A DNA stretch of 62,900 bases, filler included, from Hausera hauseri (taxonomy: Eukaryota): the NCBI GenBank assembly GCA_046269625.1. It is 11 parts of 11 records of this genome, joined end to end, with 100 filler letters (N's around TTAATTAATTAA, not from the genome) between each part and the next. Parts side by side here need not be neighbours in the genome. Positions count along the whole stretch, not along the records: positions 42,193 to 50,053 come from JBJURY010900425.1; 10 more parts are not named here. One strand, 5' to 3'. Position numbers and translations under genes: made by a program. Shown one piece after another: positions 9,691-50,492 of the stretch; the first letter of the stretch is position 1; each line of letters starts with the position of its first letter. The notes under the pieces were generated by a model that worked only from the letters and a program-made list of their open reading frames with translations, was not told the origin of the DNA and did not search any database.

Positions 9691-10934
9691 GAAGTGTGTC
9701 GGCAGTTAGTATTAGAGACGTTGCCTTTACCAAACTCTGCCGTGAGTACTTGCGGTGAAATTAGTTTTTTGGGATCCGTGAGATCGGACGACTATAACTA
9801 GAGGAAATAGAACGCCTGTCGTTGGGGTGGTTAGCGCTGTTCTTATATGTACAGCGTGAAAGACATTTGTGAGCATGAAATCCAAATTTCGCATGATAGA
9901 TGCAAACAATCTTGTCTGAATGTAAATTTAGAGTGTAATATCTGCACCCTAAACAGCATTTATTAGATTTATTGTTAAATTTGCTATGGTAATAGCCCAC
10001 AAAAAATCATGTAGGCGATGGCGACAGGTTTCTGGCAACAGAACGAGTACGGTTAAAAATAGGAACACTTCGTCGTGATAATGAAAGATCGTTTAACCTA
10101 TTATTAATGTTATTTATTGTCTGTTTTGGTGCCAAATTTTCAGCACGTAATTGATTCAACTGTTGCTCTATTGATGTATTGAGTTGATTGTCGCTTGTTG
10201 CGACTGTGGGTAATACAATTGGTCGGGAATTCAACTGTAGCACTTGATGTGCTTTATCAGCCAATTCGGCTAATTTATCCAATGTCGTAGATTCCTCAAC
10301 AACGGTAAGAAGTGCCCTAATTTGTATAGCCAACGCGTTTAAGAAATATCGTCGCAGAACGTTTGAATTATGCTGCTTTGTTACCCCTAGCGTTTGCAGG
10401 TGAGTCGACATACGCAAGAACTCAGAAGGCTTTGTTGTTCCCATTGCTTTATCATTAAAGAAGAGATGAATTATAGAGTCCATGGACGGCTCTAAGTTTT
10501 AAAACTGCATTGTAAAGCTGAGTATAAGGGTCGGCCTACTGAAAAATATCTATTTGATGTTGTTAGGAAGGAAGAATAGAAAATTGTTAGACTTAACAAA
10601 AGAATCAGTAATGTCGCAAAATTAAGCCATAGTTGGTGAAACTGCAACCAAGATTTGCTAGAATTTTGGTTTTCAGTAAAATATTTAGTACGCTGTGATG
10701 TATTGATACCCGTTTGCTTATGCTGAGAAGTCTTATAAGGGTTTTGAGGAGTTATTGACGGTTTAAGGTTAGACTGTTTGTTGAGGTAAATGATCGATTT
10801 ATACTTAGCAGGATCGTCCGTAGTGTCAATGGTGGAAGAGGATTGCATCCCACCACGGACTCGAGGAATGATGTGAAAACAGAGGTAGTAAGACGTAAAG
10901 GCGATGTCTTGAAGACTATCAAGGACGAAGCCAT
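9691..10934 (-). mobile_element. Family A Ty3/gypsy gag remnant
   Basis: MQSSSTIDTTD start, LRRYFLNAL..QIRALL, double Cys/His knuckle. Closely similar to 51214-52350. Confidence 0.9.
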
Positions 10935-26277: not shown

Positions 26278-27716
26278 TTAAACCAAAACCAATTCTTTAT
26301 TTGATGACAAAAGAACCCCATCTGTAATTGTCGGGTTATTTTATTGTAGTGATATTCTTGGGGCGCCAATTCCCTTAACTTCCTTTCAGTATGTTTAGGA
26401 CGCTTAGAACGACAATTTTTGGCAAGTGACAGAAAAATCGAAATTAATAAAATGAGAACAAACGTTGATAGTATATCCAATTGATACTATCGGTAATGTG
26501 GTTAGTTCCATTGGTGCTTGTGCTGTAACTAGAATCGTGCTTTCGTCGTCTATGTTTTTGTATGTGTGCGATTTTGCACGAATTTCGTCTAAGGTGCGCA
26601 TTATCAGTATTCAGATTTGTTTATCTTCTGCGTGTACTTGTATTGTATAACCAGATTTTAATCTTAACAAATTGCGCTGTCTGGTAAGTGTTTTTAAGTA
26701 ATGTGACAATGTGATTATTGTATGTTGTTCGGCAGTTTATATGTATATCGTAATTTAGTTTTTTTTCTACAAAGAACACAATTTTGAATCTATACGCCGA
26801 ATACTTAATAGGTATACTCTGTAATTTTCTTTTAGGCACACTGCCTTGGGTAATGGGTTTGGTAATGGTACTGACTCGAGTGGTCGGATTTTTGGTTGTC
26901 GTTTCTATTGGAATCCTCCATATTTTATTCTTCGAATAATAGGTTCGTAACTGTATGCTCGGTTTGTTTGGCCTCACTTCATATAAGTCACATTTTATTT
27001 TGAATTCCTGGTTTACTGGAAGTTTATAACATAGATGTTGCACGCCCGCACGGACGGAACAGTATTCTATTTTTGGAGTTTGTCCGTTTACCGCTTCGAA
27101 GACAATACTAATTTCTTGATTAAATTTTAATCCTGTTCGAGCATCTACTTGGATGCATTGTTTTTCTTATTTATTGAGATACTTTTTATATTTTCATCTA
27201 ATAACCGTATATCTGGGTCGGTGGATTGTAGAATCGCCGGAGCCAAGGGGGAATAACCAACTGAAGTTGTGGGTTTACTTCTATATAGACTTCTGCTGAG
27301 TCCGACAAATACATGCAATAAGTAAGGACGTAGGTATGAATAAAATCTATGTTGCAGCACTGGGTATAATCTCCGAGTTCAAAATCACAGTTGTCCTCTT
27401 TTTTGTTGCTACATCCTATAGGACAATTTGAAATCTTCCAAAGTCGTGATGCAGTCCTCAAGCTTTAAATCCAGCACACAGAGTCTGGCAAAAAGTAATG
27501 AATCATCATTGATTGTAACAATTTAGTGTCTTTTCAATTTTGGATCTCTTCCGCTGTTGGTTTATTTTCCTTTACTACGTTTTTTTGTTTTAATCCACTC
27601 TTCCAAATTCCATATACGTTCTCTCGCGTAATTTGGTCGTACCATCATTGGGTTCGTGTTTTTGGTATGTAAGCAGCAATTAATAATAACACTAAGACTA
27701 TCTGCACATACGACAT
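26278..27716 (-). pseudogene. Family B ORF-D: type I membrane protein (signal peptide, Cys-rich region, FN3-like domain, TM, tail) downstream of integrase
   Basis: ATG at 27716 gives MSYVQIVLVLLLIAAYIP. TM is STFVLILLISIFLSLA followed by KNCRSKR. Colinear with 38920-39650. Confidence 0.65.
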
Positions 27717-27752
27717 CGGTCTAGCGATAATTGAAGAAGTTTGTATCTCACG

Positions 27753-30628
27753 TCAACGTAAATTGTAACGCTTATTAGGTCGTATCTTCGTCTTAACGAA
27801 TCTTTGTACTGATGCGACTTCTTCCTTACCATTTCTGTTGATGTACACTGTAGTTGGCGTAACTTTAGTAACCTCATAAGGTCCCCTGCCTGTACGAGTC
27901 AGTTTTAATGACGTACCTTTTTTGCTAATGGGTAATGTACATAAACCCAATTTCCTTGTTCCAAAATCGTGCGGTTTTGCTTTCTTAACATTTTGCTTCT
28001 TAAACTATTCTTGATATTTTCGAGATAATTCTTTGGCGATTTTACAGCACTTTTGCAATCGTGTCTGTAGTACTTCTGCAAAATTTTGCTCTAAATCTTC
28101 GGGACTGATCACGTATGGCGTCATTCCTAAATCTGTGAGCAACACAGCTTCACGACCATACATTATGAAAAATAGTGTAAATCCTGTTGCCGGATGTGGA
28201 GTAGTATTGATTGCAAATTGAGTTCCTTCTAGAAATTCGTCCCAATATTTTTGGTCTTTGGCTACTACCGTGGATAATATACGTATAACAAATGCGTCCA
28301 TTCGTTCAACCATTCCATTCCACTGCGAGTGATGGGCGGTGGTAGTTAACTGTTCGATTTCAAATATTTTGGTAATCTTTTCGAATAGTTTACTTATTCA
28401 CCGGAGGTCCATATCGGCAAATGATTCTTCTTACTATAGCTTCGGACAAGGTTTCTGCCTTTCGATCAATTAACGCTATCAAATCGACAAAATGATTTAG
28501 TCGATCAATACAAGTTAAGATATGTTTATTGTTTTTGTGGGTCGTAGGAAGTGGTCCTACGATACGCAATGACATGGCTTGCATAGGTCTGTCGGACACA
28601 TAGATTGGTTTTAATTCCGTCATGTAATTCTTTGTCTTTTTCTGTTTAGTTGCACATACTTCGCAAGCATTTACCCAGTTTTTCACATCAATATAGATAC
28701 TGGGCCAAAAGTATTTATGCAATATTCTTTCTAATGTTTTCTTCCAGGACATGTGTCCGGCCAAATATGAATCATGTTCCTACTTTAAGACTTCAATTCA
28801 ATAAGACTTCAATAACTATCAGCTCTTTTCCCTTTCGCTCATAATATAGAAGGTCTTCGAGACCCTTGTTGGCGATATATTATTTCTTTGAGCTTACTTT
28901 TCTTCCTTACAGTTATTGCACTTATTTTGGTTTTCAATATTGATAGTGCATCGGCATCTACATGTTTATTCCCTGGCTTATACTGGAATTCTATATTATA
29001 TCTAGAGATTTCTTCAATACATCTGTTTAGTTTGCATGTCGGCTTATTTGCTTGTCCTTTTAGAGTCGTGAAGACCTTGTGGCCAGTAACAATTATAATT
29101 TTCTGCCCGTACACGTAAATGTTGAAGTATCGAAGCGCTTCCTTTACGGCTAGAGTTTCTAATTCAGTAACGGAATAGTTTTACTTTGCCTTTTTCAAGG
29201 AACGTCCTCCATTAGGAATTGGGTCTTCTAATTCTTCATCTTCTCTTTCCTGCACGAAATCATATCCAACATATTCTTTACTGGCATCTGTCTTAATTAT
29301 CAATGGTAAATTGAAGTCTGGATATCACAGAACTGGTTCGCTTTTTAAAATTCTCTTCATTTTGTAGAAATTCTCTTGCTCGATGTCTGTCCATTTCCAT
29401 TTAATTCCCTTTTTAAGTTGTCGATATAAAGGTGCATTTATTTTCGAGTTATCCGAAACATAACTGGAATAACACCCACATAAGCCTAGCCAGTGTCTCA
29501 ACTCTTTCTGATTTTGTGGATTATGCAGTCTGATATTTTGTTCAGTAATGATTTATCTGGTTTTGATCCTCCTCCAACTACATGGCCAAGGTAGGATACT
29601 TCATTTTGAGCCAATTTACATTTCTTTGGGTTAAATTTTAATCCTGCTTGTTCTAGTCTCATCAGTGTGTGCTAAATATCTTTAAAATGTTCTTCTACCG
29701 TCTTTGACTCGATCATCACATCATCTAAGTATGCAAAAGCATGAGATAGTCCCATTAGCATTTTGTTCATCATTCTTGTACAAATGGCTGGTCCGGTAGT
29801 AATACCAAATGGCACGACATTAAACTCATAGACGCTACCGTGCATTTTGAACGCTGTTTTATATCGATCATCGTCTTCGATTTCTACTTGCCAGTATCCA
29901 GATTGTATATCCAGAGTATTAAACCATTTTTCTCCGGAAAGCCTATTCAAAGCTTCTTTTACGGACGGCAGCGGAAAAGAATCTTTCATCATAATGTTAT
30001 TCAGTGTTCTGTAGTCAATACAGAATCTTTTTTTTGTATTACCTTTCTTTTTAACCATGAGGATTGGTGAGTAACAAGATCTATAACTGTGTTTAATTAT
30101 ATTGGCTTTAAGCATACGTTTGACCTCTTTTCTTATCTGGAGTCTTAATGAATGTGGAGGAGGATTCCATTTCGGCATATTTTGATCTTCAAGATATATC
30201 TCTTCATTTGAACTAGGCTTCTTTTTAAGCGGAATGGTCAATTTTAATGCTTTTGCTCTACCGATATCTTCGTCATCTTTAGCAATGATTGATTTATAGC
30301 GACACAATAATTCATAGAATCGACAGTAATATTTGAGAGTAAACTTGGTTTTGAAATGAGGTGGAAATTCTGCATACTTGTAAGGCTTTTCTTTAATAGT
30401 TATAGACGACACTTTATAAGTATTACATAAAATAGTATAAAAATGAATCTTGATGGGAGTTGGTGCATTATTTGCTATTCTGATCGGTACATGATCGGAG
30501 TGTACTCTCGTCAATATGTTACTGAGTGTTATATTTGGATTTGATGTCTCTCTTGGTTCAAAATATACCGGCTGGTCGTCATCACGTTGAATTTGTGCGT
30601 AGACTATCATTTCGGTTCTCCGTGGAAT
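27753..30628 (-). mobile_element. Family B pol: RT, RNase H, integrase with GPY/F module (Ty3/gypsy order), degraded
   Basis: RFCIDYRTLN, DIQSGYWQ, PFG, YLDD; TDAS, YSVTELE; H..GH...CEVC; NGMVER; RGPYEV. Confidence 0.95.
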
Positions 30629-30728: not shown

Positions 30729-32154
30729 ATGAGCGACAACCCTAGCAAGATACCAAGACTCTTGACGGCCAGCCAACGTTCTAAATACTTACAAGAAATT
30801 TATTTGAAGTTGAGATGGGAACACGAATGGACCCCTAAGAACCCTATACACAATTTACGCAGCTCTATTAACCCTGAACAGATAGATGGAAAGTACAGAG
30901 GAAATATAAAACCTTATTCCCCGATTCGAACTATTCAGCCAATGGACGAACACAATCTCCAGATTACAGTACCAAAACAGAAGACTGAGAATAAGATCAG
31001 ATCACAAACGACTAAAGAAAAGGAGACATTGCAAGAAACATCAAATGCCCCACAAGAACAGAAAAAAGAAAAAAGACCAGAAACGATAAATAAAAAGATG
31101 AGATTAGAGGAGAAACCCCAACCTAGAAAAACATTATCTATATACAATTACCTATTTAAAAGACGGAAAACGGACGAGGGACAAGAAATAGACAACAATC
31201 AAAATCAACCAAGCACTTCTCAAAGTATAGAACCGTCAAAGAAGGGAATTAAGAATCCCTTAATAACAGAAATCAATACCTTGATAGGCAAAAGAAGCAA
31301 AGAAGATGTACACTATAAAACAAATCAAGAATTTCCTAGGATGTTGGTAGCCACCGAATACTATAGCAAGAAAATAATAAAGGAAGCAATGTTCTTCGTA
31401 AAACTTGCCCCAGCCAGAGAGGTATTCGAAAACACATGTGTGGGAAAATGCTAAAATCGGAACTTATTTTACCTCAATATTTCGTTCCAAGGAAACAAGG
31501 AAAATAGTAGTTCCCGTGGATAAACAAATCCGAGTGTTATTGAAGAAACAATATCAAAAGTATAAGATAGAAGGAAATATTCCTGACCTAGACAAAGATG
31601 TGATGGCAGATTGGACCCTAATCCAAGTAGATTGCGACCCACGTAAAAGCTCCATTAACCCAAAACAAAAAGTGATTCATGGCTACTTATACCAGGATAA
31701 AGACGGTCTCGTATTCGAGCCTATTGAATTAATCATCCAGGTGGATTTGGATAGAGAAGACTGGAACAAGGAAGACAGCGAATGCCCCGTTTGCGAGGCA
31801 AACCTGAGACAAGGTTATGTGGTTCTAGATAATCGAAATTGCCGTCATAAATATTGTCGAGATTGTTTAGAGAAGTGGACACTCGACAATGGGAAAACGA
31901 CATGCCCAGTATGCCGGGCCGAGGCCACAGATTTAAAGTACTATTCGGATGGAAGTTACACACGGGTTGTTCGAATAAAACCCTATCATAGTTATGATCT
32001 GGAAACAAACGTAGTAATCCGTCGAGATCAACAAAACTCCCCTTCAGACTTAACAGAGAGAATGAATCAATTGAGAGATCCTAGAACGTTGGGCGTCACC
32101 TCTTCTGACGCAATAGGCTCCTCCGAGGATGCCGCTCAGGGAGGAGAAATGTGA
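30729..32154 (+). pseudogene. Family B ORF-E C-terminal part: RING-HC (C3HC4) finger protein with one frameshift
   Basis: CPVC...CRHKYCRDC...CPVCR at 31783-31917. Homologous to 40680-42031. Confidence 0.85.
32138..32149 (+). promoter_or_regulatory. Polypurine tract of family B (second copy at 42061-42072)
   Basis: Both copies read CGAGGATGCCGCTC, then a purine run, then TGT. Confidence 0.8.
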
Positions 32155-33129: not shown

Positions 33130-36100
33130 AATTACACTACAATTTATGATAACGATTACTATGCAAGTTCGGTTTAACGTTCTCGATCTGATTAATGTGT
33201 CTAGTCTTTTTTGCAATGCTTGTATTGAATGCGAAATTGGTAACTGTGTTTCAAACACTTCTAATCCTAATTATTTAAGATTTTACTGTGGAATCTAGAC
33301 TTAATGTAGTGAAATCCCACTTAATGGGCGATGGAAACTATAGATAAATTTACAATAAAAATTTATTATACAAACAAGTAACCAAATTTTGGACGACTTA
33401 CAATGTCGTAATCAGAATATCAATTTCAATGGAATTATATCTCGTATTTTATTTCGGAATCTCGCTTTGATAACACTGAATTCTGCAACGATTGACTTAT
33501 TTGGAATCACACTTCACCGCAATATGACTGCAATACTGATTAAGTAACTACGGTCCGCAATCTGTTCAACTTCAACACCTAATCGTCTGAAACTGTTCAC
33601 TCAACAATATTCAACTGATGTTCGTTAGTTCACTACTTATATCTGCACTGAACGTAGGTGACTTCCTCTGAGTTTGATAAATATTTATTTGTATTTGTCC
33701 GAATTTCGCATGATTTCCGTTGAATAAATTAGTATTTCCGCTGATTAATTTCCGTTGATTATATTAACTGATTAATTCTCATAAAATAAACAGTGTCATA
33801 CAATAAATACATTTTAAGTGCATTTGTCCATTTCTTATGTACATCATCCTCTATTTTCTTATGATGTTCTGTTTTCACGTGACTAGAATTTAAATTTTGG
33901 CCCCAAGCAAAAGAAAAACTTTGTCATAACCCTAATATATGTGTGTGAGTGTGTGTGTACTAATTGATTGGATATTATACAATCAAATGAATAAAACCGA
34001 ATGGAGTTGACAGTTCGTCTTCTTATGACGACATAAATGACTAAATTGGTCCTTTCATCCAACAACATCCTAAAAGTGAATAATGATATCAAATACCCAA
34101 TTTAATTAAAATTTAGTAATGTATTACGTTGGATTTTACAAATCTTTTACATTTGTTTTTGTTGGACAGCGCATTTCCAATAATTTCAAATAGAATTTTC
34201 ATTAACTAAACATTTATGTCTGGAAAAATTTCCAGTAATAAAAATTATTATGCAAAAAAATATTTCTTTGAAAACCACTTCAATTTTAATATCACATCAT
34301 ATTTCATTAATATAATTGAGAGGATTGCCACTTTCTTGGTGATGCTTGAGCATTTTACTCAGATCGTCAGTATTCTTATCCATTATTTAATTAATGGTAC
34401 TAATTATTCAGAAAATGTGAATTATGTTATTTCCATTAGATTTTTGTTATTAATTCGTAATTCTCACGTATAGGATTAATATATCACACCGCGTTAGAAT
34501 AAAGCAGATCAAGGTATTATATTTCATTAATGAATTTTTGTACAAAACATTTGTTGAAATTTGGTATGGGACGATGTTAATAATAAATAAAGTATTTAAG
34601 CCAATAATGCTAACTGATTGGTGGTATATTGTTGGTGTGTCTTACCCTGCGTTTTTCAAGTACCTACAGTGAAGCTCCGTTAGTATGAATTTCTTTCAAA
34701 TTCTCCGAGTTTCGAATTAACCGAAATCTTCCTTTGGGAGCCAAATCCCGTGCAGTAAATTCTGATTTTATTATAGAACACGTTTGCATACCATTTAACT
34801 TACAATTGATTGATTTATACACTTAATATGATGTTGCAAGTCCCTTCTTGTCNNNNNNNNNNNNNNNNNNNNNNNNNNNNNNNNNNNNNNNNNNNNTTAA
34901 TTAATTAANNNNNNNNNNNNNNNNNNNNNNNNNNNNNNNNNNNNNNNNNNNNTAAGAACTATAGGTGAATCTAATAATCAACAAGTAATCAAGGCCAGGA
35001 AGAAGTATGAAGAAAATTGGCAGCAAATGGAAGTTTATCATAGATTAAGAGAACCAAAAACAGAGTACAAAAAGGCTATAGCGCCTAGGAATACTAACAT
35101 GGCCAGAAAGGAAAACCTAAATCCAGTAGCAAAGCCGACTACGTCTTCAAGTGTAGACTTGGATGCAGATACCGAGGTCGAACCTCAAAATAATGACAAA
35201 ACAACATATGAGGTTGAGAGCAAATTCATTGGTCCACTGATACTCAAGATAACCAAATATAGAGGTAAAGGCCCTTCACTTAGGAGAAGATCAGGACTCC
35301 TTCACGATCCCCTATTAAAAAGGATGTAGAAAAGGAGGATGACTTTATCATCACTTTAAGAAATGAATGATGTATGTCCATTACCCCGTAGTGAAGAGGA
35401 ATCAAAAGAGAAAAAACCTGTTAAGTTTGGGAAGATTAGAAAATCTTGGAAAAATGCAAACGAACTAACCAAAATAAGAGACGCACTGAACGATCCCGGA
35501 AGGTCACAGGAGAGCCTACAAAAACTTCAGCAGATGAGCAAACAGTTGGATATCTCTGGGAAGGAACAACAATTCATAGAGAAGATATATAAAAAACTTA
35601 AACCCGGCCCTCACAAGGAGAAAGAAAACATACCTCACGAACTCCAAGAAACGCGGCAAGACTTGATAGGAAGTTGGAAAATAAAATAGAACTGTGGACA
35701 AAGAGTGGGATCGATTTTACGAAAATATGGTGGAATAGAAATGAGCCGTTTCTTGATCAGGTTAATCAAGCGCAAGGATTATTAGACACACTAAAGGACA
35801 ATCCAAAACTAAAACGCGTAAGACGTTATTTAGAAGGATTGATATATGAGATCGAATATGCGATAATTTCTTATCTCCATAACAAGCCAGTATATGAACT
35901 AACTAATGCCGACTTAGAGATATTGGGTATAGACCCAATCGATATTCCCCCTCTAATAGCATTGTGCAGCCTGATAAAGAATAGCCCTCGAAAATACCCA
36001 GATTTAAAAAACCGGATTGAAAGAGAAAACAAAATACAAATCAAAATTAACGACTGTAAAATCGGTGTAGTTCACCCTGGAAGAGCAGAAGCACAGAGAA

Positions 36101-37564
36101 TAATACGCGCTTATCTTCTTGAATTAGACGAGTATAAAGACGAATTCAACTACATGAAACATATCATAGAATTTGTATGAGGGCCAGATCACGAACTAAA
36201 AGAAGCTGTTGAGACATTAAACGAAATAATCTACACTAAACCGGCAATATCCAAACAATTAAAGAAGTGGATAGACTTTCTACCTTCAATAGCAGGGATA
36301 ATAAACGAAAGACTGAGGGAATTCGCCGTGGTTGAACCTATAATAAGAAACCAATTGGAGGAAATGTTACTGGATATCGGTACGATGGAAGAGGAAGCAA
36401 AATTACGAATCAAATTCGAATCATTCCGAGAACTTGAATTTATGAGAAACGACACTAACAGAGATATATAATATGATAGAAGAAAAGGAATTCTACAGAA
36501 AAAGAAGCAAGCTAAGTGATCTTCAGCGAAGTTTAGCAAATATCCGTAGGGTAGGAATACAGAGCCTAATGCAGAAACCGTTGAAGGAAATCTCAGTACA
36601 GGAAACAGAAACGTTAGAAGTATGTAATGATCACCGGATTGCTCTAGCGCAAACAATACAATATTTACAGAATCCAGCAGAATGGACGCCAGGTTTCGAC
36701 CTACATTGCCACACCGAACTAACGGAAATTAGGAAGGACCTTCAGTTGACGAGCGATGAAGCCAAGTTCATAGGCAGGCTAATAGACGCAATAGATCCGG
36801 ACGTCGAAGTATTAAATCAAACACACAAATTAATTCTACTATTAACAGAAATGGCAGAAATTGACGAAATAGTAGCCAGACGACTAACAGATCGAATACG
36901 TTTGATAAAAGAAACACGGTTACGCTCCGAGAAAAGACAGCGCGAGCTAAGCGAATTACTGAGAGAAACAGAAGTTTATAAGAACAAGTATTACCTTACG
37001 GAATCTGAAATGAACGACAAAACGGAATTTATACAGAGATGGCAAAGAGACAAAATCGCAAAAATGATTAGTTGTCGGGAGAAAGCTCTGATACAACCAG
37101 AAGAAATGTACCGATTAATAACATTGATACAGCAATCGTGCGGAAATGGAGACGGATTTAGGATATCCGTAATGAAAACATTACAACCGCAGATAAGAAA
37201 ATTACGCAAAAGAGTCCAGGTCAGACATGCGGCACTATTGAACTACGAGTTACCTGACGCAAATAATGATGCCGAGTGGGATGAATATCTCCTAGGTTTA
37301 ACCGAGCGAAGTCAAAGAACCCCAATACAAATTTATGAGTCACCTACTGGTGCCCAGAAGATGAAATTTAACGTGCAAATACTACTTGATCCTGCGCTAG
37401 CTGAAAGGGAATTGAGCGGTGCATTGAAAACAAACATAAATGAAGATAAGTTAAAAAAATTGATTCCAACTCTGACTAAGCTATACAGTGAAAATACCGC
37501 ATACAGTGCACTACCCAAGCTCCTAATAAGAGAATACGCTAAACTATTGAAAAATAAACCGAAA

Positions 37565-37790
37565 GCGGAAATTAAAGTGAAAGAATCATCCGAATGGATG
37601 AACAATGAGGAATTTGAATGTACTACCTATACCACCGTTGGGAATACAAGACAACGGATAATGGATAAAAATGGTAGGAAAGGAGTTAATTACCGACTTT
37701 ATTTCAGAGGCAGGATATTAAACGAGCTAGAATCCTTAATAAACGTAGGAATTGTACCTTCCGAGGAAAATCGAATAATAGCAATAATTG
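37565..37790 (+). other. Ubiquitin-like domain within family B ORF-A (second copy about 46965-47190, minus)
   Basis: IKVK...TTVGNTRQRIMDKNG..VNYRLYFRGRILNELESLINVGI and TSVGEIKQWIVQNSG..ENYQLYFRGRILDEPELLIDVRI align with ubiquitin [37 protein letters not shown]. No terminal GG. Confidence 0.75.
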
Positions 37791-39702
37791 TCAGTGAACA
37801 GACCAAAGACGAAGCCATAAGAAAGGCACATACAGAATCTTGCGTTGGAAAAATCATGGGGATTCAGGATGCCGCAATGTATTTCGAATACTTACAAACT
37901 GATGATGACAACCCGCAACACGATAAAACTTAGTCTCTCTAAGTGAAACCTTACTACCGATGAAGTCTAAACGACCGGTCGGAAAACCGAGAAAAAGAAA
38001 AGAAATTAACTATAATGCAGACCTAATTAGGAAATTTAGACAACTATAGGTACCAAGCCCGAGTTGAGCTAATGAAAGGCCTAATTAGGATAGTCAATTA
38101 TACCGGACTCCAAGGCGACATATTATCCGAGAAGAAAAGACTAATATATAATATAGCCCGGACAATGAAGATTTCACGATTTAAATTATCTAAAAGCATC
38201 CTCCCTGAAGAAACAGTAATTTATAGAATTATGATAGACAATACGATGGAAGAATTAGGGAAAGTCTTGATATATTTAGCAATCAGAACTTAACCACTCC
38301 GGGAAAACGAATTTGACAAGACAATTGGGTTAGCTAGAAAAGCTGCAAGAAGGGTACCTAAAGAAATAAAATGGACTAAATTGTTCGAAAAAGGGGAAAA
38401 TACAAAAGGAACTAATAAGTTAGAGGATATGATACGAAATATCTTCCCGAACAAAGGAAACGAACCCAATTGGTTAATCAACTTGCTGACGATAATGATG
38501 CTAGTAAAGCAGATAAGAACAGTTACTATATACGACTGCGACAAATTTAATGTGGATTCGAACGTTTAACCACTACCGCGTACCACCCCAAATTTAATGG
38601 AATGGTCGAACAAATGAACGCAACAGTCATTCGAATATTATCAACGGTAGTGGCCAACGACCAAAGGGATTTTGGCGAATTCCTAGAAGGGACACAGTTC
38701 GCGATCAATACGACCCCACATTCAACAATAAAATTTACACCGTTCTTTATGATGTATGAACGAGAGGCAATCTTACCCACAGATTTAGGTATGATACCGT
38801 AAGAAAAGAACCTCGAGGATCTAGAGCAAAATTTTGCCGAAATCTTATAGACAAGTTTGCAGAAGTGTCGGGAAGTTGCAAAAACATTATCATTCGAATA
38901 CCAGATACATTTTAAAAAATAATTTATACACTTATATGAAGTTCAACCGAACCAGTCGAGTATTTACCTAGGAATTTATCAATTGAAAAATCAAATTTGG
39001 GAAACTCCACCGGAAATGACGACAAGCGGAATTACGACTACAAAAATAAATATAACTATTTCTACATGCATCAAAATCGTCTAAAAGAGTGGATTGTCTC
39101 AAAAGGATTTAGAATGATTCCTATAAAGTATTGGACACAACAACATGAAATAACTTTCGTTGTGGAGGAAGCGCTTAATTACGACGTAGAAATAAGCTAC
39201 CGAACATTACATAATAACCAAAAATTAACACAGGCTAAAGGTCGCTATCAAATCAAATGTACCTAATTGAAACCCAAAACAGACTACATAATACAAGTAA
39301 GTGCAGAGAACAGACAAGATAGAACATTTACGGTACGGACTCTAAACGAGATTGTCTTAACAAAACCACTAACTAACGAGGAAACGGAAGAGGAAACTAC
39401 GATTACCGTCAAAACGAAAAAACTAACTAAATGTACAACTTTTTAATAATATCAATTATTGGATCGTCAACATTTGCTCTCATAACTTTTGTTGCGTTTT
39501 TCCGATTTATTGCCAAAAACTGCCGTAATAAGAGTCATAAAATCACCGAGAGGGAATTAAGGGTAATGGTACCGCAGGATGGAATCAATGATAGAGTAAC
39601 TTGACAATTACAGGTCGGGTTATTCCACCATCAAACAAAGAATTAATTCAGATTTAGAACAATACTTTGTTATAGGATTGACCCTTATTTTTTGTTTTCA
39701 GA

Positions 39703-42031
39703 ATGGTAAGTACGGATAGCCGAATTAGAATCGAGGAGTATTTACGGAGACAAGCTACAGTGTTTATTCCAAACACAAAATCTATTTCTAAAAGGATAAC
39801 TGAAGCATTGCAGGCAAAAATCTATGCCGAATTTTCGTAAACCAACGAAATTCCCAATGATCTAAAGGGTATTACAGAGGAAAATCACACGGTTTTCCTT
39901 TAGACAATGCGCGAAGATAACCAAACTAAAGCATATTCCCTAAGGGAATTAATCCGAAACCGACTAGCCAAAATTCAAGACATATACATCCACCTAGCCG
40001 ACGGAGAAATATATTATAGAGTAGGAAACCAAACCTGAAACTCCAATGAAGGGCATCAATATCGATTTAGCACATTTAAAATAAACGGAAAGGGTTTAGA
40101 ACGTATTGACTACGGTCTAAAATTTAGAGTATCAGCCCTTCCTGTTAAACTTATGTTCGAAGTGACCTACACAGAGGGTTGTAATCTACGCTTGCCAGCT
40201 CTAGAATTTAAACAATTTCCAACTGAGGAAAAGATGAACATCGTAAGTCATATAGACTAGTCCAAGATGGTCGTAACGTAAGAATCACCGCGATAAATTG
40301 TGGCAAAGGAAATGATGGATATGGAAGTATCTATTAGAGAAAGGGATGGGGTCGAAATATACTCCACAATCATAAACCCCCGGAAGTATGCTCAAGAATC
40401 GTACGCAGAAGTAACTGGTTTAAGAGAGCAGCTTATAAGAGGAAAAGACAGTAGACAAGTCCGTTCGGAGTTGGACCATTGTCTTTACGGTTGTATGTTG
40501 GCAGGATATAACGTGCAACGATCAGTCGAGTTACTAAAAATATCCGATGCAAATATTGCCGGAATTAGGAAAATAGCCACCCACCCAATAGTCCAAGAAC
40601 GAATGGAGGAAACCATACAAGGAAGAAATCGACCGACCGCTCCAGAAGCCATCTTCACGTTAATGATCGAAGCAATGAACAACGACTCGAGTAGAATTCA
40701 GACTTAACGGCTAGCCAACGCTACAAATATTTACAAGAAATTTATAAATCACTAAAATGGAAACATGAATGGGCCCCTGGAAACCCCATATACAATTTGC
40801 GCAGTTCTCTGAAGCCCGAACAAATAGATACCAAATATAGAAGAAACATCAAACCTTACTCTCCGATCAGAACTGTCCAGTCGATAGGCAGCCACAATCT
40901 TACAATCACCATACAAAACCAGAGGAGAATATAACGGAATTACAAACAATCGGGAAAGGAAACAAAACGCCCAATAAAACGTCAAAGTCTCTAGAAGAAC
41001 ACAAGAATTGAAGCCGAAAACAATAGTAAAGAAACAGAAAATAGAAGAAAAGCCCCAGTCCAAAAAACGCCATCTATTTATAACTACTTGTTTAAGAAAA
41101 GAAAAGATGAGAATCTAAAAGATGAAAACCAACAAATTGAACCAAGCACCTCTCAGAAGGCCAAATCCGTAAAAAATCAGTGAACCTATGATAACTGAAG
41201 TCAATGTCATTAGGGAAGAAGATCGAAGAAAATGTCCACCATAAAACAACTCAGGACTCATCAAGAATGTTGATAGCCACAGAATATTGTATCAAGAAAA
41301 TGATCAAAGAAGCTGTTTTATATCAAAGTTGCCCGGCCAGAGAAGTTTTCGTAAATACATATGTTTGGGAAAACTCTAAGTTAGGAAATTACCTTACCTC
41401 AGCCTTTCGCTCAAAAAGGACAGGAAAAATTATAGTTCCGGTAGATAAAAAAATCCGGATATTAATAAATGAACAATATCAAAGATACCGAATGGAAGGA
41501 AAAATTCAAGATTTGAACCAAGACCTTATGGCGGATTGGACCTTAATACAAGTAAGCTGTGACCCACGGAAAAGTTCCATTAACCCTAAGCAGAAGGTAA
41601 TTCATGGATACCTTTATCACGATGCGCATGGCCTTATATTCGAGCCCATTGAACTGACAATCCAGGTTGATTTAGATAGAGATGATTGGGACAAGGAGGA
41701 TAATGAATGCAATGTGTGCGATGCTAACCTGAGACAAGGTTATGTGGTATTGGATAATAAAATTTGCCGCCACAAGTATTGTCGGGATTGTTTTGAGAAG
41801 TGGACACTCGACAATGGAAAAGCGACATTTCCAGTGTGCCGAGCAGAGGCTACGGATCTGAAATATTATTCTGACGGAAATTACACCCGGGTTGTTCGCA
41901 TTAAGCCCTACCATAGTTATGATCTAGAAGCCAACCCCTCACGAAGTCAAAACCAACCGGATTCCCAAACCAACTTACGAGAAAGGATGGAACGGTTGAG
42001 GCGACCAAAGACGCTAGGCGCAACTTCTTGA
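39703..42031 (+). pseudogene. Family B ORF-E full extent: about 780-codon protein ending in RING-HC
   Basis: ATG at 39703, right after a polypyrimidine/CAG acceptor, is in frame (through several stops) with ORF 40300-40707 and continues via frameshifts to the RING at 41708-41842, where the 7th ligand is C>F. Confidence 0.65.
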
Positions 42032-42399
42032 CGCAATAGGCTCCTTCGAGGATGCCGCTCAGAAAGAAGAGATGTAACAGTGCTGGACTATANNNNNNNN
42101 NNNNNNNNNNNNNNNNNNNNNNNNNNNNNNNNNNNNTTAATTAATTAANNNNNNNNNNNNNNNNNNNNNNNNNNNNNNNNNNNNNNNNNNNNCGAATTAA
42201 CCAATCAGCATGCGAGACGCTTGTGATTGGTCAATTGGTGCGTGGGTGGACCCCCCCCCCTCCCCCCTTGTTCCAGAAACGCCTTTTTCCCCCTACTTAG
42301 GTAATATCAACATAGGCCTAGCCAATGACTTAATTCTTTTTCGTTCTCAGGCTCCATACAGTCCGAAATTTTGTTCAACAACGATTTGTCTGGCCTTGA

Positions 42400-43800
42400 T
42401 TTTCATTCTCCAACTATATGGCCAAGGTACGATACAGCGTTCAGAGCCCACTTACACTTTTTTGATTTAGTTTTAACCCAGCTTGTTATAATTTCATGAG
42501 TGTGTCTTCGATGTCCTTCAGATGCTCCTTTTCGGTTTTTGATGCAATTATTACATCATCTAAGTACGCAAATGCATGTTCCAGTCCCTTTTGCATTTTA
42601 TTCATCATGCTGGTAAAAATGGCTGATTTTGTAGTAATTCCAAATGGCATAACGTTAAATTCATACACAAATCGTGGGTTTTAAACTCCGTTTTATAATG
42701 GCCTTCATCTTAGATTTCTACCTACCAGTATCCGGATTGTAAGACCAGAGTGGTAAACCTTTTTGTTCCTGAGAGCCTCTAAAGCCTCTTTCACAGATGG
42801 TAAGTGGAAAGAATATTTCATCACAATAGTATTCAGTGCTCTGTAATCGACACAAAATTGATATTTCGTGGTACCTATTTTGACCATAAAAATGGGTGAA
42901 TACTAAGATCTAAAGATCGGCCTTATTATATCGGCCTTGTGCATTCGTTCCACTTCCTTAGTTATCTCGGGTCTCAAGGAATGTGGTGGTGGATACCATT
43001 TTGGCATCTTCTGCTCTTCCAGATCAATTTCGTCATAGGAACCAGGCTTCTTCTTAAGTGGTATAGTCAGCTTTAACGCTTTTGCTCGACCAATGTCTTC
43101 TTCGTCCATTGCAATAATGGATTTATATCGACATAATAATTCATAAAATTGACAATAGACTTCTGGTGAGAATTTAGTATCTACGTGAGGTAGAAATGCG
43201 GAATATTTATATAGTTTCGCTTCAACCGTTATTGCTGATACTTTATAAATGTGTCTCAAAGTAGTGTTGCGTATAATTTTATTAGAGTTGGCGCACTGTT
43301 CGCTAATCTAGCTGGTATACGTCATCTTGACAGATCTGTGCAAATATTAACAATTTCGTTCTGGGCGGAATCTAGGCTGTATCTAATTTCTAACCGGAAT
43401 CCATAATTCTCCGGGTTTTCTTTCTTTGTTAATTTTTGTCCCTTTTATCGGTCCAAGTTGGATTAGCTTCGCGGTGTTTAAGTCTACCGCTATGCTTGGG
43501 AGACGCCTTAGTACATCTCACCCTAATACTACGTCATCCGTTAAGTGTTCCATTATAGAAAATTCATGTTGGAATGTTTGTCCCATTATACTGATATTGG
43601 GATTCCATTTAAAGTTCGGTCTCGATTCTTGTCCAAAAGCTCCTATGCTTCCGGGATCGGTTGCTAGCGGTAAACGTAGTTGATGTCGTAATACTTTTGG
43701 TATTGATCCGTTTTTATGAACGATTTCTCTGAGCTGGTATATATTAGCGCATAAACTTCCCAATCATCAATACTGATTTTGGCGAAGGGTCTACATTATT
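42400..43800 (-). mobile_element. Family B pol 5' part: degenerate protease and RT
   Basis: RPFAKISIDDWEVYALI(Y)T(S)SEKSFI is a mutated DTG site; DDVVLG; FCVDYRALN, MPFG, YLDD. Highly similar to 29672-30420. Confidence 0.9.
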
Positions 43801-44209
43801 TTATCCTAGGCTGTTTAACGCTGGATATCTTGTGCCCATTTATACTAATTTCTGGTATGCTACTAGTATCTTCGGCTATCTGTCTCGATTCGATAATGGG
43901 ATATAATCCGCTATTTACGCAGTTTCCATCGTCCCGCTCCTGCGTACAGATTAATAATTCTCTGTTGTTTGAACAATAGAAAGAGTGAATTCGTGGATTA
44001 TCCCAAACTGACGATTTGGTTTGTACATTCCGCGAAATCCACGGGGAGTATATCACTTTGCGGTCATCTACTGATCGGTGACGTTACTCGAATTTTTCTC
44101 TATTTCCGTACATTTTCCGTAATGCATCGCATTGCTGTGTACCTTCATAAGGGTTTTTATAGTTCAAGGGTTTCATATAGTTTTACGACTTGTAAGAGTT
44201 AATTGATCG

Positions 44210-46270
44210 TTAGTTGCAGTCCTCGTATAATGGCGCCGAAGGGGGCAGCATAGGCAGAGGCGATTTTAAGACATAGTACTCCTTATGCTTGCATATTTTG
44301 GAGACCACGTCTCCTCCCTTAGGCTCATCATCATCTGAATTATTTCTTCGTAATTTCATATCCCTTTGTCCTATGAAGAATACGGGTTTTCTTTTTCGTT
44401 TTCGATTATAATAGACAACATGTCTCTCAACATCGCTTTTCCATCTGCTCTCTTCATACGTCTTCAAAAATTTTCAAAGGGCTTTATAATCGCTGACAAA
44501 ATTTTACACGAAAATCCAGTTAAGGCAAATATTTCATAGCCATTTATAACGGATTGAATTACTGACTTAATGAGTTGTACTAAAATATAGATAACTAAAA
44601 ATTCAGATGCAGCTTGTCCTCAAATTAAAAATCTTCCCCAGATCTTGTATAATATCTCCGTGGTGATTCTTTGATAATGATTGGAACCAAGTAGAAATTC
44701 CCATTTTGCTTGATAGATAGTACTATCTATTACCGTTGACATAGCTGTATTCAATTCATGTGTACGCTGACGATAGAAAGCTGGAAACTGTCTAAAAGCC
44801 TCAATTTCCTTTGGTCTGTAAATTCCTTTGCTCGCGGTATCAGAAAACTTATCATCCGTTATACCTTTTAACAAATTTGTCCCTGTTAGTTTATTAGGCG
44901 TGGCTATTATTCTTCCATTTGGCAGGCTTAGCCAATCTATCTCACTTTTACTAAACATAGGTTCGCCTAAACCTGATTTACATTCCTTCAAAATCGTTGG
45001 CTGTGTTGAATTTTCCAATAAGACTCTCGTAAGTGGCATGGCTAACCGAGGTACGTTCTGGTATAGAACTAGCAATACTTGCATACAACGTTTCTCTTCT
45101 ACGTTTATGGATACATCCCGTCTTTTGCATTCGTGTGTTAACAGAACTTCTCCGGTGACTCTTCCGAAAATACCTTCTTTTATGGGGATCACAGGCACTG
45201 CTAGATCCGAGTTGGCACATATTAAGGCCACTATGGTCCTCATAATTTCTGTGTCCAATTTACAGTTATTTGCGATTATTTTGTGACATAATTCTGCTAT
45301 TTCGGCTTGTCCTTTATAATAAAAAGAATCGTCTCTATTTTTCAAGTAATCTTCTATTCTTACCTCTTGTGTTTCCAATGAATAAGTAGTTATTGCAGCT
45401 TCTGCTACGAAAAATGCTTCATAATTGGTGGCACACATCACTACGTTACATCAGGGGAGCATTTGTTTCTTAATAAACTTTAACCCATGATCATCGGAGA
45501 TTAATATCGTTGGTGTGGAGTGTTCGGTCACATCCTTCCTTGACCGAGCATTATTATCTATCGTATCCACATATCTTTTCCCCGTGGTTTCGTTAAAACT
45601 AATCTCTTTTATTTTAATGAAATTACAGCCACTCGCAGGAAGTGGAATCCAATTAATTATTGAATTGCGGAAAGTACAGGCACCATCTTGAATATGACAC
45701 TTCTGGTTTTCGGTATATACTTTCGTAACACTATGAAACATCACCTTTTGATTTCTCATTTCTGTCTCATAAAAATCGACTACTCCTCCTCCTTCTTTTC
45801 CTCTTCCAGTATCGTATTCACCTCCCTTACAGTACCCGGTTTGAATATGTAGCTTTTTAATTGCTACTTTATATACCCTAATTATTCTTCCCTACTCCAC
45901 ATCGTCCCACCTCAATCTTCCGGTTTCTTTAACTGGTTTACACTATTGTCTGTCTAAATCCATGGTAATTAGCGGAGTAGTTGGTTTTATTATTGATGAA
46001 TGTCCGTGCATGTTCCCACAATGAAAAATGCTTCAAGATCTGCGTAACATGCATTCTATCCCGTCTACCGCAATCAACTTGCGTTGATGATACAAAAAGT
46101 ACTTTTTCTCAACGGTTACTAACTTGTGAGGTCTGGCGTCCTCGCACATTTCTAAATCCATCAGAGAATATTTCTGACCTAGCTTGAATTTATCACAGCC
46201 GTACACCGTGATTTCTCCCAGTTGTCTTATTAGCACCATGAGCGTTATTAATTTAATCATCCAATTCGGT
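44210..46270 (-). pseudogene. Family B envelope glycoprotein, chuvirus/Jingchuvirales-like (class III fusogen type)
   Basis: Signal then VYGC..YSLMDLEMC; C....FHCGNMHGHSS; C...ETG; GYCKGGEY; C...DGAC; C.LDTEI; G.FGRVTGEVLLTHEC; CMQVL.V; PLTRVL; SKGIY; W.RFL.*G...LVIYILVQLIKSVIQSVINGY TM region. The Cys spacing and motifs match chuvirus-type glycoproteins as I recall them. Confidence 0.8.
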
Positions 46271-49200
46271 TCGCTGTCTCGTGCTGAGTTGGGTGGCATT
46301 AATTCCTTACAACATCTTTAATTCTAATGGACCGCCTACTTTCGCCTTCATCATCAATTAGTTTGGACCAATTAACTTCTATAGGTATTTTCCTGGCCAA
46401 GCCAATAGTCCTATTAAATTCATTTCCCCGCGAGGAATTTGTTTTGATTGCCAAGTACAATACAACTTTTCTTAATTCTTTTTTAGTATTTTCCACCATG
46501 GTTTTCGCAATTACAACCTCATCAGGCAAGGTACTTTTATTCGTCTTGAACCGGGATGTTCTGATTATCCTCGCAGCATCGTATATCGCTCTTTCCTTTT
46601 CATCCAACATGTCACTTCTTGGTCCCGAATAATTCACTATTTTTATAAGATTTTTTATTAACTTGGTTAATTCTTCATTGTCGGAGTTAATTGTTGGCAT
46701 TGACATTTGCCTCAGTTCTCGAATTAGATCTGCGTTATGGTCGGTTTCGTCTCTTACGTTTCTTTGTCTTCCAATTGATCATTTTTGTTTCGCCGGAGTC
46801 GGAATTGCTTCTCTAAGCGGCACTAAATTCCTGTCATATTGTTCTTTATCTTCCTCATTCTAAATGTAGTCAAAATACATGGTAGGGTACCGAATTCCCA
46901 TAATGCGTCCTACACAATGTTCAGCTCGTGCTTTCCCTTATCGTTTTGTCTTTCGTCTGTTCATCAGTAATTATGGCCAGTATTCTATTGGATTCCTCCG
47001 GAATAATTCTAACGTCTATTAGTAGTTCGGGTTCATCCAGTATTCTGCCTCGGAAGTATAACTGATAGTTTTCTTCGTCTTTACCACTATTTTGTACTAT
47101 CCATTGTTTTATTTCTCCCACTGAGGTTACCGTTGTACACTCAATTTCCCTCTCGTACATCCACTCGGCTGATATTTTTACCTTAATTATCGTTTCGGGT
47201 TTAGCCCTCAAGATTTTAGCGTACTTCCTTATAAATAGTTTTGGCACGGTACTATAAACGGTATTTTCACTTGATAATTTAGTTAAGGTAGGGATTAGTT
47301 GTCTTAGTTTGCTTTCAGTTATATTTAAGTTAATTTGTTCAATTAAATCTTTCTCAGCCAGTGCAGGACCGAGCAGCATATCCACATTAAATTGTCAGTT
47401 CGATGGAAGTTGGATAGGCGTTTTAGGATTCTGGTTGTACACATCCTCCAAATAGGTGTGCCATCCTACGTCGCCTGTAACGTCTGGGAGTTCATAGTCC
47501 AATAATGTCGTGCTCGCGCATTTCACATTTTCACGGATCTTGTTTAACCTCGGCTGGACTTCTTTCATTAAGGTAGTTTGGAACTCCACTGCGTTTCCAC
47601 ACTCAATTTGGAACATTTTTAATGGTGGTCCTAATTCGTCTGCAGGAATGAGCCCTTTTCTTTCATAATTCGTTAATTCAGTAGTCACATCTGCTAACCA
47701 CCTCTGTGGAAATTCATTTTATTCGTTATCTCCGATCGAGTAAACTTACATTTATTCCTATAGATCTCTAGTTCATTGTCTAATTCATCTAACTTTGTTG
47801 CTCTCCGCTTCGTATGGATACGATGTTCTTCTATATCTCTAACTTGGGTTGTCAATTTTCGTGCTTTGTCATCATTTATTTCTGACATTGCTGATAACAG
47901 CGATATTAGTCCTTGCATTTCATTTAGAGTCTTAGAATCTGGGTCTACTTCGTCAATCAGTTTCCTTCGAACTTAGCCTCGTCCGATGTGAGTTGACTGT
48001 CTTTCTTTATTTCTCTCAATTCAGCATGGCAATTTTGGTCTGTTCCTAATGTCCATTCAGATGGACGATGTAGAAATTTTAGTATTTCTTCTAACGCATT
48101 CCGATGGTTCGGACAGATATCCAGCGTTGTTAAATCGTATATCGATATTTCATTTGTGGGTTTCGTCGTCAAATATTGTGTGCCTTCTAGGCGAACGCGT
48201 TTTAGTCCTGTAACGAAATGGGACATCATTTCCCGTTTCGTTGACAACTCTATCTCTTCGATCATCGCGTATAATCCTTCCACGAATGTTATTTCCTGAT
48301 TTTTGCTCATAAAATTTAATCTTAACAATGCGTTGAATTCAACCCGAAGGGTTGCCTCTGTTTTCAGAGCATCTAGATATCAGAGTATTTCTTTCAACCG
48401 TTGTTTGGATATTGGTTCACATATAGAATATTTCCTCAAGTGATACTTCGTTAAGTATGCTAATCTATACAACAATTCAATCCATTCCTTGTGATGGTTG
48501 TCTATTACCGGTTTCGCGTATATTACATTTTCTAGTTTTTTATAGGCATTGTTTAGTTTGTCGTCTGGACCTTCGATATATTCCATTATTTCTATAACGT
48601 AATTAACTTCATTCTTGTACTCATCCAGTTCCAGAATACACGTTTTCGTTATATTTTGCGTTTCTGGATTTTCTATTTTCGTTATTTTGTTCTTACATCT
48701 GTAAATCTCGGAGCGTCTTTTATCCTTTAAGACTATACGAATTCCTACATCCTCATATTCCTTAGGCGCGTTGAACGCGATTTTGCACATTTCCATTACG
48801 AGAGGAATATCTACCGGTTCTATTCCCAGTATTTTGAATTTGTTTTCATCCAGTTCGCTTACTGGTTTATTTTTAAGGTAATAGATTATTGTATCCTCTA
48901 TTTCTTTTATTAAATTATCTAGGTTACGCTTTGTTATCTTCTGTTTTGGTTCCGCGGCTAACATCTTTAGTAATTCCTGGGCAGTTGTCACTTTACTTCA
49001 GATTTTAATCTCCTGATTATTCAATATCTCGGTGAAGTCGATTTCCATTTTTATTCATGAGCTCAGTTTTGTTCGCCATTCTTCAATTGATTTCTCAATA
49101 GCTTCTTCTGATTATTCTAGTTCTTCGTCCCTTCTAGCATTTTCCTCAATGTACTTTTTAAATGCATTACACATTTTCTCGGCAAACTGTTGTTCCTTCC

Positions 49201-49616
49201 CGGATACATCTACTTGAGTTTTTATACTTTCCAGTTCCTCTAAGTTACGACGTAAAGTCTCCAGGTCAGTCAATAGTGTCCTAATCTATTTTAATTTATC
49301 CGCATTCTTCCAAGATTTCCTGATCCTCCATAATTTCCCGTCGAGTTTCTCAATTCGTTCCGTTCGGTCAATTTCGCCTTCGCTTATGGGTTGCCGACAT
49401 ATCTCGTTTATTTCATTGTTTCCGTCTCCTGCTTTTATAGTTATACTTGCATCATCTGTTATTTCTCTAAGCTCCACATCAGGAGTGCTAAAACTTGAGA
49501 CGTCCTCCACATCGATATCTCTGGGATTGATCCGCCCTGAATTTTCCTTTTTGAAACTAACTTTTATTAACTAGATTCTGTGAATTTTACAAAAAAAGGA
49601 ATTTGGAAAAAATATA

Positions 49617-49687
49617 CTCCCGACCGGGAATCCAACCCGGACCTTCCACGTGACAAGCGGAGATACTTACCACTATACTATCGAGGA
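49617..49687 (-). tRNA. tRNA-Asp(GTC)-like pseudogene, copy 1
   Basis: TCCTCGATAGTATAGTGGTAAGTATCTCCGCTTGTCACGTGGA... The T-loop is TTGGATT, the acceptor 3' strand is one G short, and TTTTTT follows downstream. Confidence 0.8.
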
Positions 49688-49852
49688 CTGATTAAATTAT
49701 TTTAAATTTCCATGTTAATTTAACCACATCATTCCTGCGTCAATGGCTCGACTCCACACACTTCCAATCCGTTCTTATGTCAGCGTATAGAACTAACTTT
49801 TATTAACTGGATTCTGGGCACTTTACAAAGAAAGGAATTTGGAAAAAATATA

Positions 49853-49923
49853 CTCCCGACCGGGAATCCAACTGGGGCCTTCCACATGACATGCGGAGAT
49901 ACTTACCACTATACTATCGAGGA
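49853..49923 (-). tRNA. tRNA-Asp(GTC)-like pseudogene, copy 2
   Basis: Tandem copy with a 236-bp period and additional mismatches. Confidence 0.75.
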
Positions 49924-50153
49924 CTGGCCTTTTTGTTTCCTTTTTATCGATGGGCTACGGCCTCTATTCTTCGTTATTTTAACCACTAACGGTGCTATAT
50001 ATTTACTCTTAATTTTTTCGGAAGCGGCAGTCTCTTCTCTTGTTAGTTTTTCGNNNNNNNNNNNNNNNNNNNNNNNNNNNNNNNNNNNNNNNNNNNNTTA
50101 ATTAATTAANNNNNNNNNNNNNNNNNNNNNNNNNNNNNNNNNNNNNNNNNNNN

Positions 50154-50492
50154 GACTTTTTTAAGTTAAAGAATAATAATCTATATGGTAAGACCGTAGA
50201 AAATTTATTGAAAAGGTCAATTTTAAGAATGTGCAATAATGCCAAAAAACTTGTTACTTACACAAGTAAGGCACAGTTTAAGAAAAGTATCATTATAGCC
50301 GATGACCTTGTCGCTGTTCTCCTCGATAAAGACATAGTTACTTTAGACAGACCCTCATACATTGGTCAAGCAGTACTTGATCTGTCAAAGTTAAGGATGT
50401 ATGAGTTGAATTATATAGTGTTGGAGAATTACAGACAACAGTTTAGTTGCGAAATTAATGTAATTGCTGATAACACGGACAGTTTTTTCTAA
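50154..50492 (+). mobile_element. Family-B-type DNA polymerase (pPolB) fragment, Maverick/Polinton/adintovirus-like
   Basis: FFKLKNNNLYGKTVEN (KxxxNxxYGK motif), P.YIGQAVLDLSKLRMY and D(N)TDSF (DTDS motif). Confidence 0.85.

Follow-up and report, generated by a model that had tools for sequence, protein, structure and literature searches.

A probable Burro-like Ty3/gypsy element of Hausera hauseri with a chuvirus-type envelope ahead of its protease and reverse transcriptase

How does an envelope (Env) glycoprotein come to lie upstream of pol in a retroelement, and was it once made with the enzymes as a single polyprotein? This question is raised by a 62,900-nucleotide stretch of DNA from Hausera hauseri (GenBank assembly GCA_046269625.1), here called the window, which consists of 11 contigs joined by N spacers. 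The focal element fills one contig (JBJURY010900425.1, 42193-50053, minus strand) with N spacers on both sides, and the parts from ORF-A to the protease site that an earlier reading of the sequence alone (the sequence-only reading) placed in a single contig do lie within it. That reading described a gypsy-type element with a chuvirus-like class III glycoprotein encoded upstream of pol, and Pfam, phmmer and the order of parts in the window bear the description out. The locus is very probably a dead, truncated Burro-like Ty3/gypsy copy in which a chuvirus/gB-type env stands between an accessory N-terminal region and the protease-reverse transcriptase part, and the ancestor likely encoded them in one polyprotein. 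From 5' to 3' on the minus strand, the recognizable parts of the focal copy are these:

46921..50053 (-): ORF-A, a broken and mostly helical N-terminal part of the polyprotein (ORF, open reading frame), recognized by stop density and by colinearity with 34955-37930 (+)
49555-49690 and 49791-49926: two 136-nt copies, 93% alike, a local duplication inside ORF-A
47002..47181 (-): weak ubiquitin-like domain (Pfam, PDB, relative P0018)
46299..46778 (-): helical domain that directly precedes the Env signal and takes the position of the Bcl-2-like domain of relatives
46207..46266 (-): internal signal-like hydrophobic segment (translation, hydrophobicity; same place and same following motif in relatives)
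44464..46206 (-): broken Env of chuvirus/Monjiviricetes type (class III, gB-like), with a C-terminal transmembrane (TM) segment at about 44625-44569 (Pfam, phmmer, profile, hydropathy)
43796..44473 (-): Env tail and spacer, a decayed coding stretch that shares the frame of the protease start (stop density; no Pfam family)
43500..43795 (-): degenerate aspartic protease (PR) spread over two frames (motif by eye; tblastn)
42250..43250 (-): broken reverse transcriptase (RT) and start of the connection region (Pfam RVT_1, E 4.2e-13; tblastn); the contig ends soon after

The identity of the glycoprotein is well supported. Its frame (46317-44464) encodes 20 cysteines, and its 617 codons include 5 internal stops where shuffled sequence has 46.7. 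With X placed at the stops, it matches the Pfam family PF24664 (Monjiviricetes_fusion) at E 5.6e-42 over residues 22-612, and a phmmer search with it recovered 291 proteins at E <=0.001, including a viral one, the glycoprotein of Wufeng shrew chuvirus 2 (E 3.6e-21). The best matches are retroelement polyproteins (E 1e-82), far above the viral glycoproteins (1e-21), and identity to the nearest intact relatives is 27-31%. A word-based search with Env among longer proteins found no match where phmmer succeeded. Cysteines are conserved across the Env family, and a profile built from 36 of its sequences finds herpesvirus gB over 74 positions, at E 4e-4 for the best match. The similarity to viral fusogens that the sequence-only reading had proposed as a check is present at the level of sequence, and the PF24664 and chuvirus matches relate this Env to the fusion glycoproteins of mononegaviruses. 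Of the protein of about 700 residues that had been described, the cysteine-rich character and C-terminal TM segment hold; about 590 residues separate the signal from a frame change, and 700 are reached only when the tail is included.

The signal-like segment at about 46266-46207 reads NWMIKLITLMVLIRQLG. ORF-A was said to run into this internal signal; the order is as described and the segment is present, but in the focal copy the domain before the signal lies in another frame. In a sister copy with an internal deletion (copy B, below) signal and upstream domain share a frame (ORF 38294-38569). A hydrophobic segment followed by [AG]-[YF]-D-C begins Env in 12 of the 12 relatives shown, as it does in the window.

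Behind Env, the tail, the spacer and the degenerate protease site ALIYTSSEKSFI do share one frame, as had been noticed, with four TAA stops (44212, 44185, 44086 and 43798). Four stops in 247 codons compare with 17.0 in shuffles, none of 2000 of which had so few, and the spacer and protease alone have 3 in 160 codons compared with 11.0 (P 0.0035). The four TAA codons had also been described as each one substitution from CAA, which carries little weight, being true of any stop codon; a coding origin is argued from the low stop density and not from the distance between stop and sense codons. The catalytic motif of the protease is broken and Pfam does not detect the domain in the focal copy. The tblastn matches of relatives P0004 and P0006 begin inside their protease region at 43595, and the region from protease to RT aligns with the matching stretch of both proteins; no dUTPase-like region was matched by Pfam between protease and RT in the focal copy. 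A Gag between Env and protease was considered and rejected, as there is no Gag match and the spacer is of a length found in relatives, where about 110-370 residues lie between Env and the first protease motif. By eye only, the spacer holds a candidate degenerate C2H2 finger, and relatives carry such fingers. Additionally, 40 bases of the Env tail (about 44310-44351) match a repeat of very high depth in run X1, with unrelated flanks.

Intact relatives speak to the original reading frame. We scanned 14 of the 17 best phmmer hits to Env, leaving out three short fragments. A retropepsin follows Env in the same chain in 11 of the 14 (P0008 at E 0.0018), the other three stop in or shortly after Env, and in five the chain runs on through RT and RNase H. 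The same layout is found in the further chains P0153 (4844 aa), P0277, P0281 and P0169. At the N-terminal side, P0019 has a capsid-like domain, zinc knuckle, Env, PR, RT, RNase H and integrase in one chain of 2146 aa, P0015 has Retrotrans_gag before Env, and zinc knuckles are found in P0009 and P0018. The position of Env between the N-terminal region and the protease is seen directly in the window; that it was in frame there is seen in the 11 relatives and presumed for the broken focal copy. These proteins, together with pieces of the focal family that exceed 3500 codons without Gag, also support the suggestion of an ancestral polyprotein of more than 3000 aa. Nematode endogenous retroviruses reportedly have a continuous gag-env-pro-pol ORF.

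Two observations on the relatives may be recorded here. The polyproteins P0153, P0009, P0006 and P0277 each contain several protease-like copies, separated by C2H2 fingers and ankyrin repeats, and P0153 has up to seven protease-like stretches, some of them after integrase. P0004, a full env-pol polyprotein, is filed as a hypothetical protein of a Flavobacteriaceae metagenome-assembled genome (HBK71150.1) and most likely represents DNA of an animal that was binned with a bacterium.

Contrary to the sequence-only reading, the enzymes are not all present in the focal contig. Alignments with intact relatives break off at about 42250-42300; RNase H and integrase would come beyond the end of this contig, and both are known from sister contigs. 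The Ty3/gypsy order PR-RT-RNase H-integrase is pieced together from PR-RT in the focal contig and RT-RNase H-integrase in a sister contig, and is found whole in intact relatives. Sister copies of the family occupy three more contigs of the window at 65-73% DNA identity:

26278..30628 (-): sister copy A, with RT, RNase H, integrase, a signal-like segment (27710) and a TM-like segment (26453), identified by tblastn and translation; 73% DNA identity to 42302-43248 over 954 nt
34953..42092 (+): sister copy B, with an internal deletion, identified by DNA comparison, tblastn, Pfam and translation
30729..32152 (+): sister copy C, a 3' end in which a RING ORF and then a purine tract (32138-32149) lead up to a TG; 71% DNA identity to 40703-42075 over 1401 nt, the likeness stopping just past the TG

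Together the pieces on four contigs amount to about 14 kb, without Gag or LTRs (long terminal repeats). The deletion at about 38551 (+) in copy B removed most of Env, PR, RT and RNase H and fused ORF-A and the start of Env to the integrase core, which is followed by an FN3-like stretch (38940-39449), a TM-like segment (39440), further ORFs and a RING ORF (41195-42031). Copy B joins ORF-A and the Env start with integrase and with the FN3-like and RING parts of the same family.

Whether pol belongs with Env was also addressed by ranking. The RT of sister copy A places chains with Env upstream at ranks 1-3, 5 and 6 of 128, and its integrase pieces place them at ranks 1-4 of 92 and of 83. In an RT tree of 33 of 130 rows, both RTs of the window and all seven env-upstream chains fall on one side of a branch with support 92/86, and a quick mixture-model tree of 40 of 131 rows has the env-upstream chains nearest to the window RTs. 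A grouping of the window RTs with env-upstream polyproteins is suggested with moderate confidence.

These results bear on the possibility that the neighbourhood arose by chance, with an endogenous chuvirus-like gene or a second element beside a gypsy pol, or with a chimeric contig made from a high-copy family. The assembly is short and fragmented, and the 3' half of the element comes from other contigs. In run X1, 2876 contigs map to the stretch at >=90%, mostly at 90-95% and spread across all 30 bins, and among those listed none covers the entire stretch. Yet the top Env matches share the order of parts and score at E 1e-82, compared with 1e-21 for viral glycoproteins; RT and integrase favour the same relatives as Env; and the spacer is decayed coding sequence in the protease frame. 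Diverged siblings in run X1 also bridge the junction: contigs read through the zone of Env and tail, with 34 differences over 323 nt, and through that of spacer and protease, and the four sibling contigs listed there do not share one of the four stops. A nested insertion or misassembly is unlikely because RT and integrase point to the relatives of Env and siblings cross the junction, and we give the chance explanation very little credence. The family is dispersed, decayed and high-copy.

ORF-A of the focal copy is spread over all three frames and its start is lost at the contig end (50053), and its colinearity with 34955-37930 (+) is significant at E 1e-14 to 1e-77. Pfam found neither a Gag domain nor CCHC knuckles in ORF-A, both window copies of which are cut by contig ends; to judge from the relatives, Gag probably lies beyond the contig end. 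Compared with relatives, ORF-A has no match beyond a weak one at the ubiquitin-like region. There, Pfam ubiquitin is found at E 0.013 in both the focal and the sister copy, a ubiquitin variant in PDB at E 0.069, and the same region of P0018 at an independent E of 0.019, P0018 having its own ubiquitin hit at E 0.031. These single weak hits, repeated across sources, suggest a ubiquitin/SUMO-like domain upstream of Env in the focal family. The helical domain that follows (46299-46778) is 46% identical to the sister copy. Pre-Env segments of four relatives, chosen by eye on account of a GGW motif, all match Bcl-2 (Pfam, best E 2.3e-05) and Bcl-xL (E 8e-4), and the order in P0018 is zinc knuckle, ubiquitin-like domain, Bcl-2-like domain and Env. 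Searched against the ESM Atlas, the Bcl-2-like part of P0018 had no match that could be used.

Several observations weigh against the reading of the locus as a Burro-like element derived from one polyprotein. No Gag and no LTR pair was seen in the window, and the focal copy is not one open frame. The pre-Env domain has no PDB match and, in a profile comparison with the Bcl-2-like domain of relatives, a probability of 0.1%. Scored with RNase H of sister copy A, env-upstream chains come no higher than rank 9 of 120. In the RT tree the branch is long and its support falls below the level starred by the tool; a FastTree of 70 of 130 RT rows puts the window RTs in another, weakly supported position; the integrase tree, built on 28 of 84 rows, does not resolve the group, at 30% of bootstraps; and the trees were built from unnamed database proteins rather than named Metaviridae references. 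The relatives are predicted proteins, known as protein chains alone, and run X1 possibly derives from the same sample as the window. Cleavage, topology and particle formation, discussed below, are predicted steps. Finally, the Env ectodomain and TM segment lie in a different frame from the tail, with the change near 44490-44465.

This last point could be explained by an ancestor of the same order in which a frameshift or stop readthrough after Env, or a separate RNA for Env, was part of normal expression, so that the frame change would not be a product of decay. At the listing threshold no indels were found among the run X1 siblings in the frame-change zone at the end of Env, as such an arrangement would have it, and the focal family is far from all intact relatives, at about 30% Env identity. 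The focal copy is dead, however, with stops and several frame changes, and those inside ORF-A, protease and RT mean that decay suffices for the one between Env and tail; moreover, 11 of the 14 relatives scanned pass from Env to protease unbroken. We consider programmed expression of this kind improbable, although less so than a chance neighbourhood, and retain a single ancestral polyprotein.

The overall layout has been published before. In the Burro/GYPSM1 elements of planarians, for which Arkhipova and Yushenova (2019, PMC6431247) draw on Grohme 2018 and Jurka 2007, env is described as lying in frame between gag and pol, in the order Gag, Ubi/SUMO-like, BCL2, Env, PR, dUTPase-like and RT; the elements exceed 30 kb with LTRs and have an internal region of up to 25 kb. 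The focal element has in common with Burro an in-frame Env before the protease, an Env of mononegavirus type, a very long polyprotein, and the succession of a ubiquitin-like domain, a domain in the BCL2 position and Env. Burro also has accessory ORFs linked to ubiquitination, and the focal family has a RING ORF. In contrast, the focal element is a dead, fragmented copy in which none of the Gag, MATH, BIR or ankyrin domains turned up, and the Bcl-2 signature is undetectable in its pre-Env domain. The available part of PMC6431247 makes no mention of a post-integrase membrane protein or of a 3' RING ORF. Judged by its sequence, the focal element is a divergent Burro-like family, with about 30% Env identity, and it extends the Burro-like range to such a family in another host.

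Further precedents come from Chary and Hayashi (eLife 2026, PMC13524379), who report GAG-ENV-POL gypsy elements whose Env belongs to the HSV/gB (herpes simplex virus) class in Platyhelminthes, Nematoda and Bryozoa, chuvirus-like glycoproteins adjoining gypsy pol in many arthropods, and mention ectodomains flanked by two TM segments. With Burro (PMC6431247), these elements leave the view that env upstream of pol is rare without support. Among them, Smed errantivirus 1-6 of the Platyhelminthes C1a group agree with the window in order, Env class and, by eye, Env motifs; the elements of that study are intact and were found within size limits. A word search of the article text as available found none of the terms 'polyprotein', 'in-frame', 'single ORF', 'Burro', 'immunoglobulin' and 'fibronectin'. 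Env also precedes pol in nematode endogenous retroviruses (Sacco et al. 2022, cited in PMC13524379), whose Env sequences in the supplement are by eye unlike that of the window. Bel/Pao elements have a chuvirus glycoprotein (Dezordi 2020, cited in PMC13524379) as the window does, but the window RT matches gypsy-type chains and not Bel/Pao. The Tor elements of Oikopleura, named in the sequence-only reading as a possible precedent, are LTR elements with an env gene and were rejected in that role, since the account of Henriet et al. (2015, PMC4402516) places env after pol, expressed from its own spliced or internal-promoter RNA.

How such a polyprotein would be processed can be predicted from its segments and from how signal sequences work, and the following is a likely scheme. 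Translation would begin in the cytosol with Gag and the ubiquitin-like and Bcl-2-position domains, until the internal hydrophobic segment steered the chain into the endoplasmic reticulum (ER). A cut by signal peptidase would free the N-terminus of Env, with the hydrophobic segment staying behind as the C-terminal anchor of the upstream domain. The TM segment of Env would then stop transfer, leaving protease, RT, RNase H and integrase to be synthesized on the cytosolic side, tethered to the Env tail until the retroviral protease cut them loose. Past integrase, another signal-like segment would begin a second protein in the lumen, of Ig/FN3 type and with a TM segment of its own. In this way a single membrane would receive equal amounts of Gag, Env and Pol, without frameshift or splice, for enveloped budding. 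The membrane-threading model of the sequence-only reading appears sound and is probably incomplete, as a second pair of crossings would follow integrase. This processing logic could be what matters here: with host signal peptidase and a protease of its own, the polyprotein would bring Gag, Env and Pol, and probably another glycoprotein as well, to a single membrane.

Evidence for the second protein comes mainly from relatives. Eight env-upstream chains include integrase, and six of these extend at least 100 aa beyond it. A signal-like segment after integrase, an Ig- or FN3-like stretch and a C-terminal TM-like segment, together a likely second glycoprotein, were noticed in P0004, P0006, P0014, P0153, P0277 and P0281. 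A strongly hydrophobic post-integrase segment is present in all six, and a second at the same threshold in three; an Ig- or FN3-like stretch follows the signal-like segment in five of six. Four of the six tails have Cys and then L-x-P-x-T-x-Y/H, a motif written after inspection of the alignment, which we take to be FN3-like, and P0281 has an Ig domain there (E 9e-05). As controls, with unmatched tail lengths, 82 other proteins with integrase were compared: 58 likewise run on past it, and three have a hydrophobic segment; one of the three is a cluster-mate fragment of P0277 and another a pol-env fusion. In the focal family, a signal-like segment (27710) stands in frame behind integrase, TM-like segments are found (26453, 39440), and the FN3-like stretch at 38940-39449 matches Pfam fn3 at E 0.0021, below the curated cut-off.

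Other results speak against a second glycoprotein. Pfam fn3 was not matched in whole-protein scans of P0004, P0006, P0153 and P0277, the post-integrase tails are only weakly alike (<10 bits), and a comparison of the P0277 ectodomain with shorter proteins found no relatives. Taken together, the data suggest that the same polyprotein may yield a second membrane glycoprotein past integrase. More tentatively, and with rather more doubt than confidence, Burro-type polyproteins may make four ER membrane crossings and combine a class III fusogen with a fast-evolving type I membrane protein of Ig/FN3 type, which would serve either as a separate attachment protein, like gD beside gB in herpesviruses, or as a decoy receptor. 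If true, a retrotransposon would encode a two-protein entry system, with the Pol enzymes made between two membrane anchors as a loop in the cytosol, and an Ig/FN3 attachment factor would give a handle on how gB-type envelopes of invertebrate retroelements find target cells; planarians carry intact copies. In the literature consulted we found no account of a post-integrase Ig/FN3 protein in Burro or gypsy elements, nor, by name, of Burro in monogeneans or of a continuous gag-env-pro-pol ORF, and for the post-integrase protein figures, supplements or Repbase entries may record one.

The 3' end of the family is known from sister copies B and C, with these features:

39748-41198 (+): two decayed ORFs between the FN3-like region and the RING ORF, with weak Pfam hits only
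41195-42031 (+) and 31438-32118 (+): RING-finger ORF just before the purine tract (Pfam RING E 4.6e-05; zf-RING_2 E 1.5e-09)

Unlike most of the element, the stretch with the RING finger has no stops in either sister copy. In copy B a purine tract (42061-42072) is followed by TG, as in copy C, and the likeness of the two copies ends there. This TG is likely the start of the 3' LTR, a single LTR start with the 5' end missing.

Aside from the focal family, the window includes a smaller, unrelated gypsy family in several copies (51282-55360 (+), 4985-8749 (+), 2232-3775 (-) and 9766-10498 (-)). A fragment at 50154-50492 (+) has no Pfam match and by eye resembles a Polinton-type protein-primed DNA polymerase B. 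An unbroken XRN1 frame of 966 aa at 15877-18777 (-) (Pfam XRN_M, E 1.5e-80) is either a very long exon or a retrocopy.

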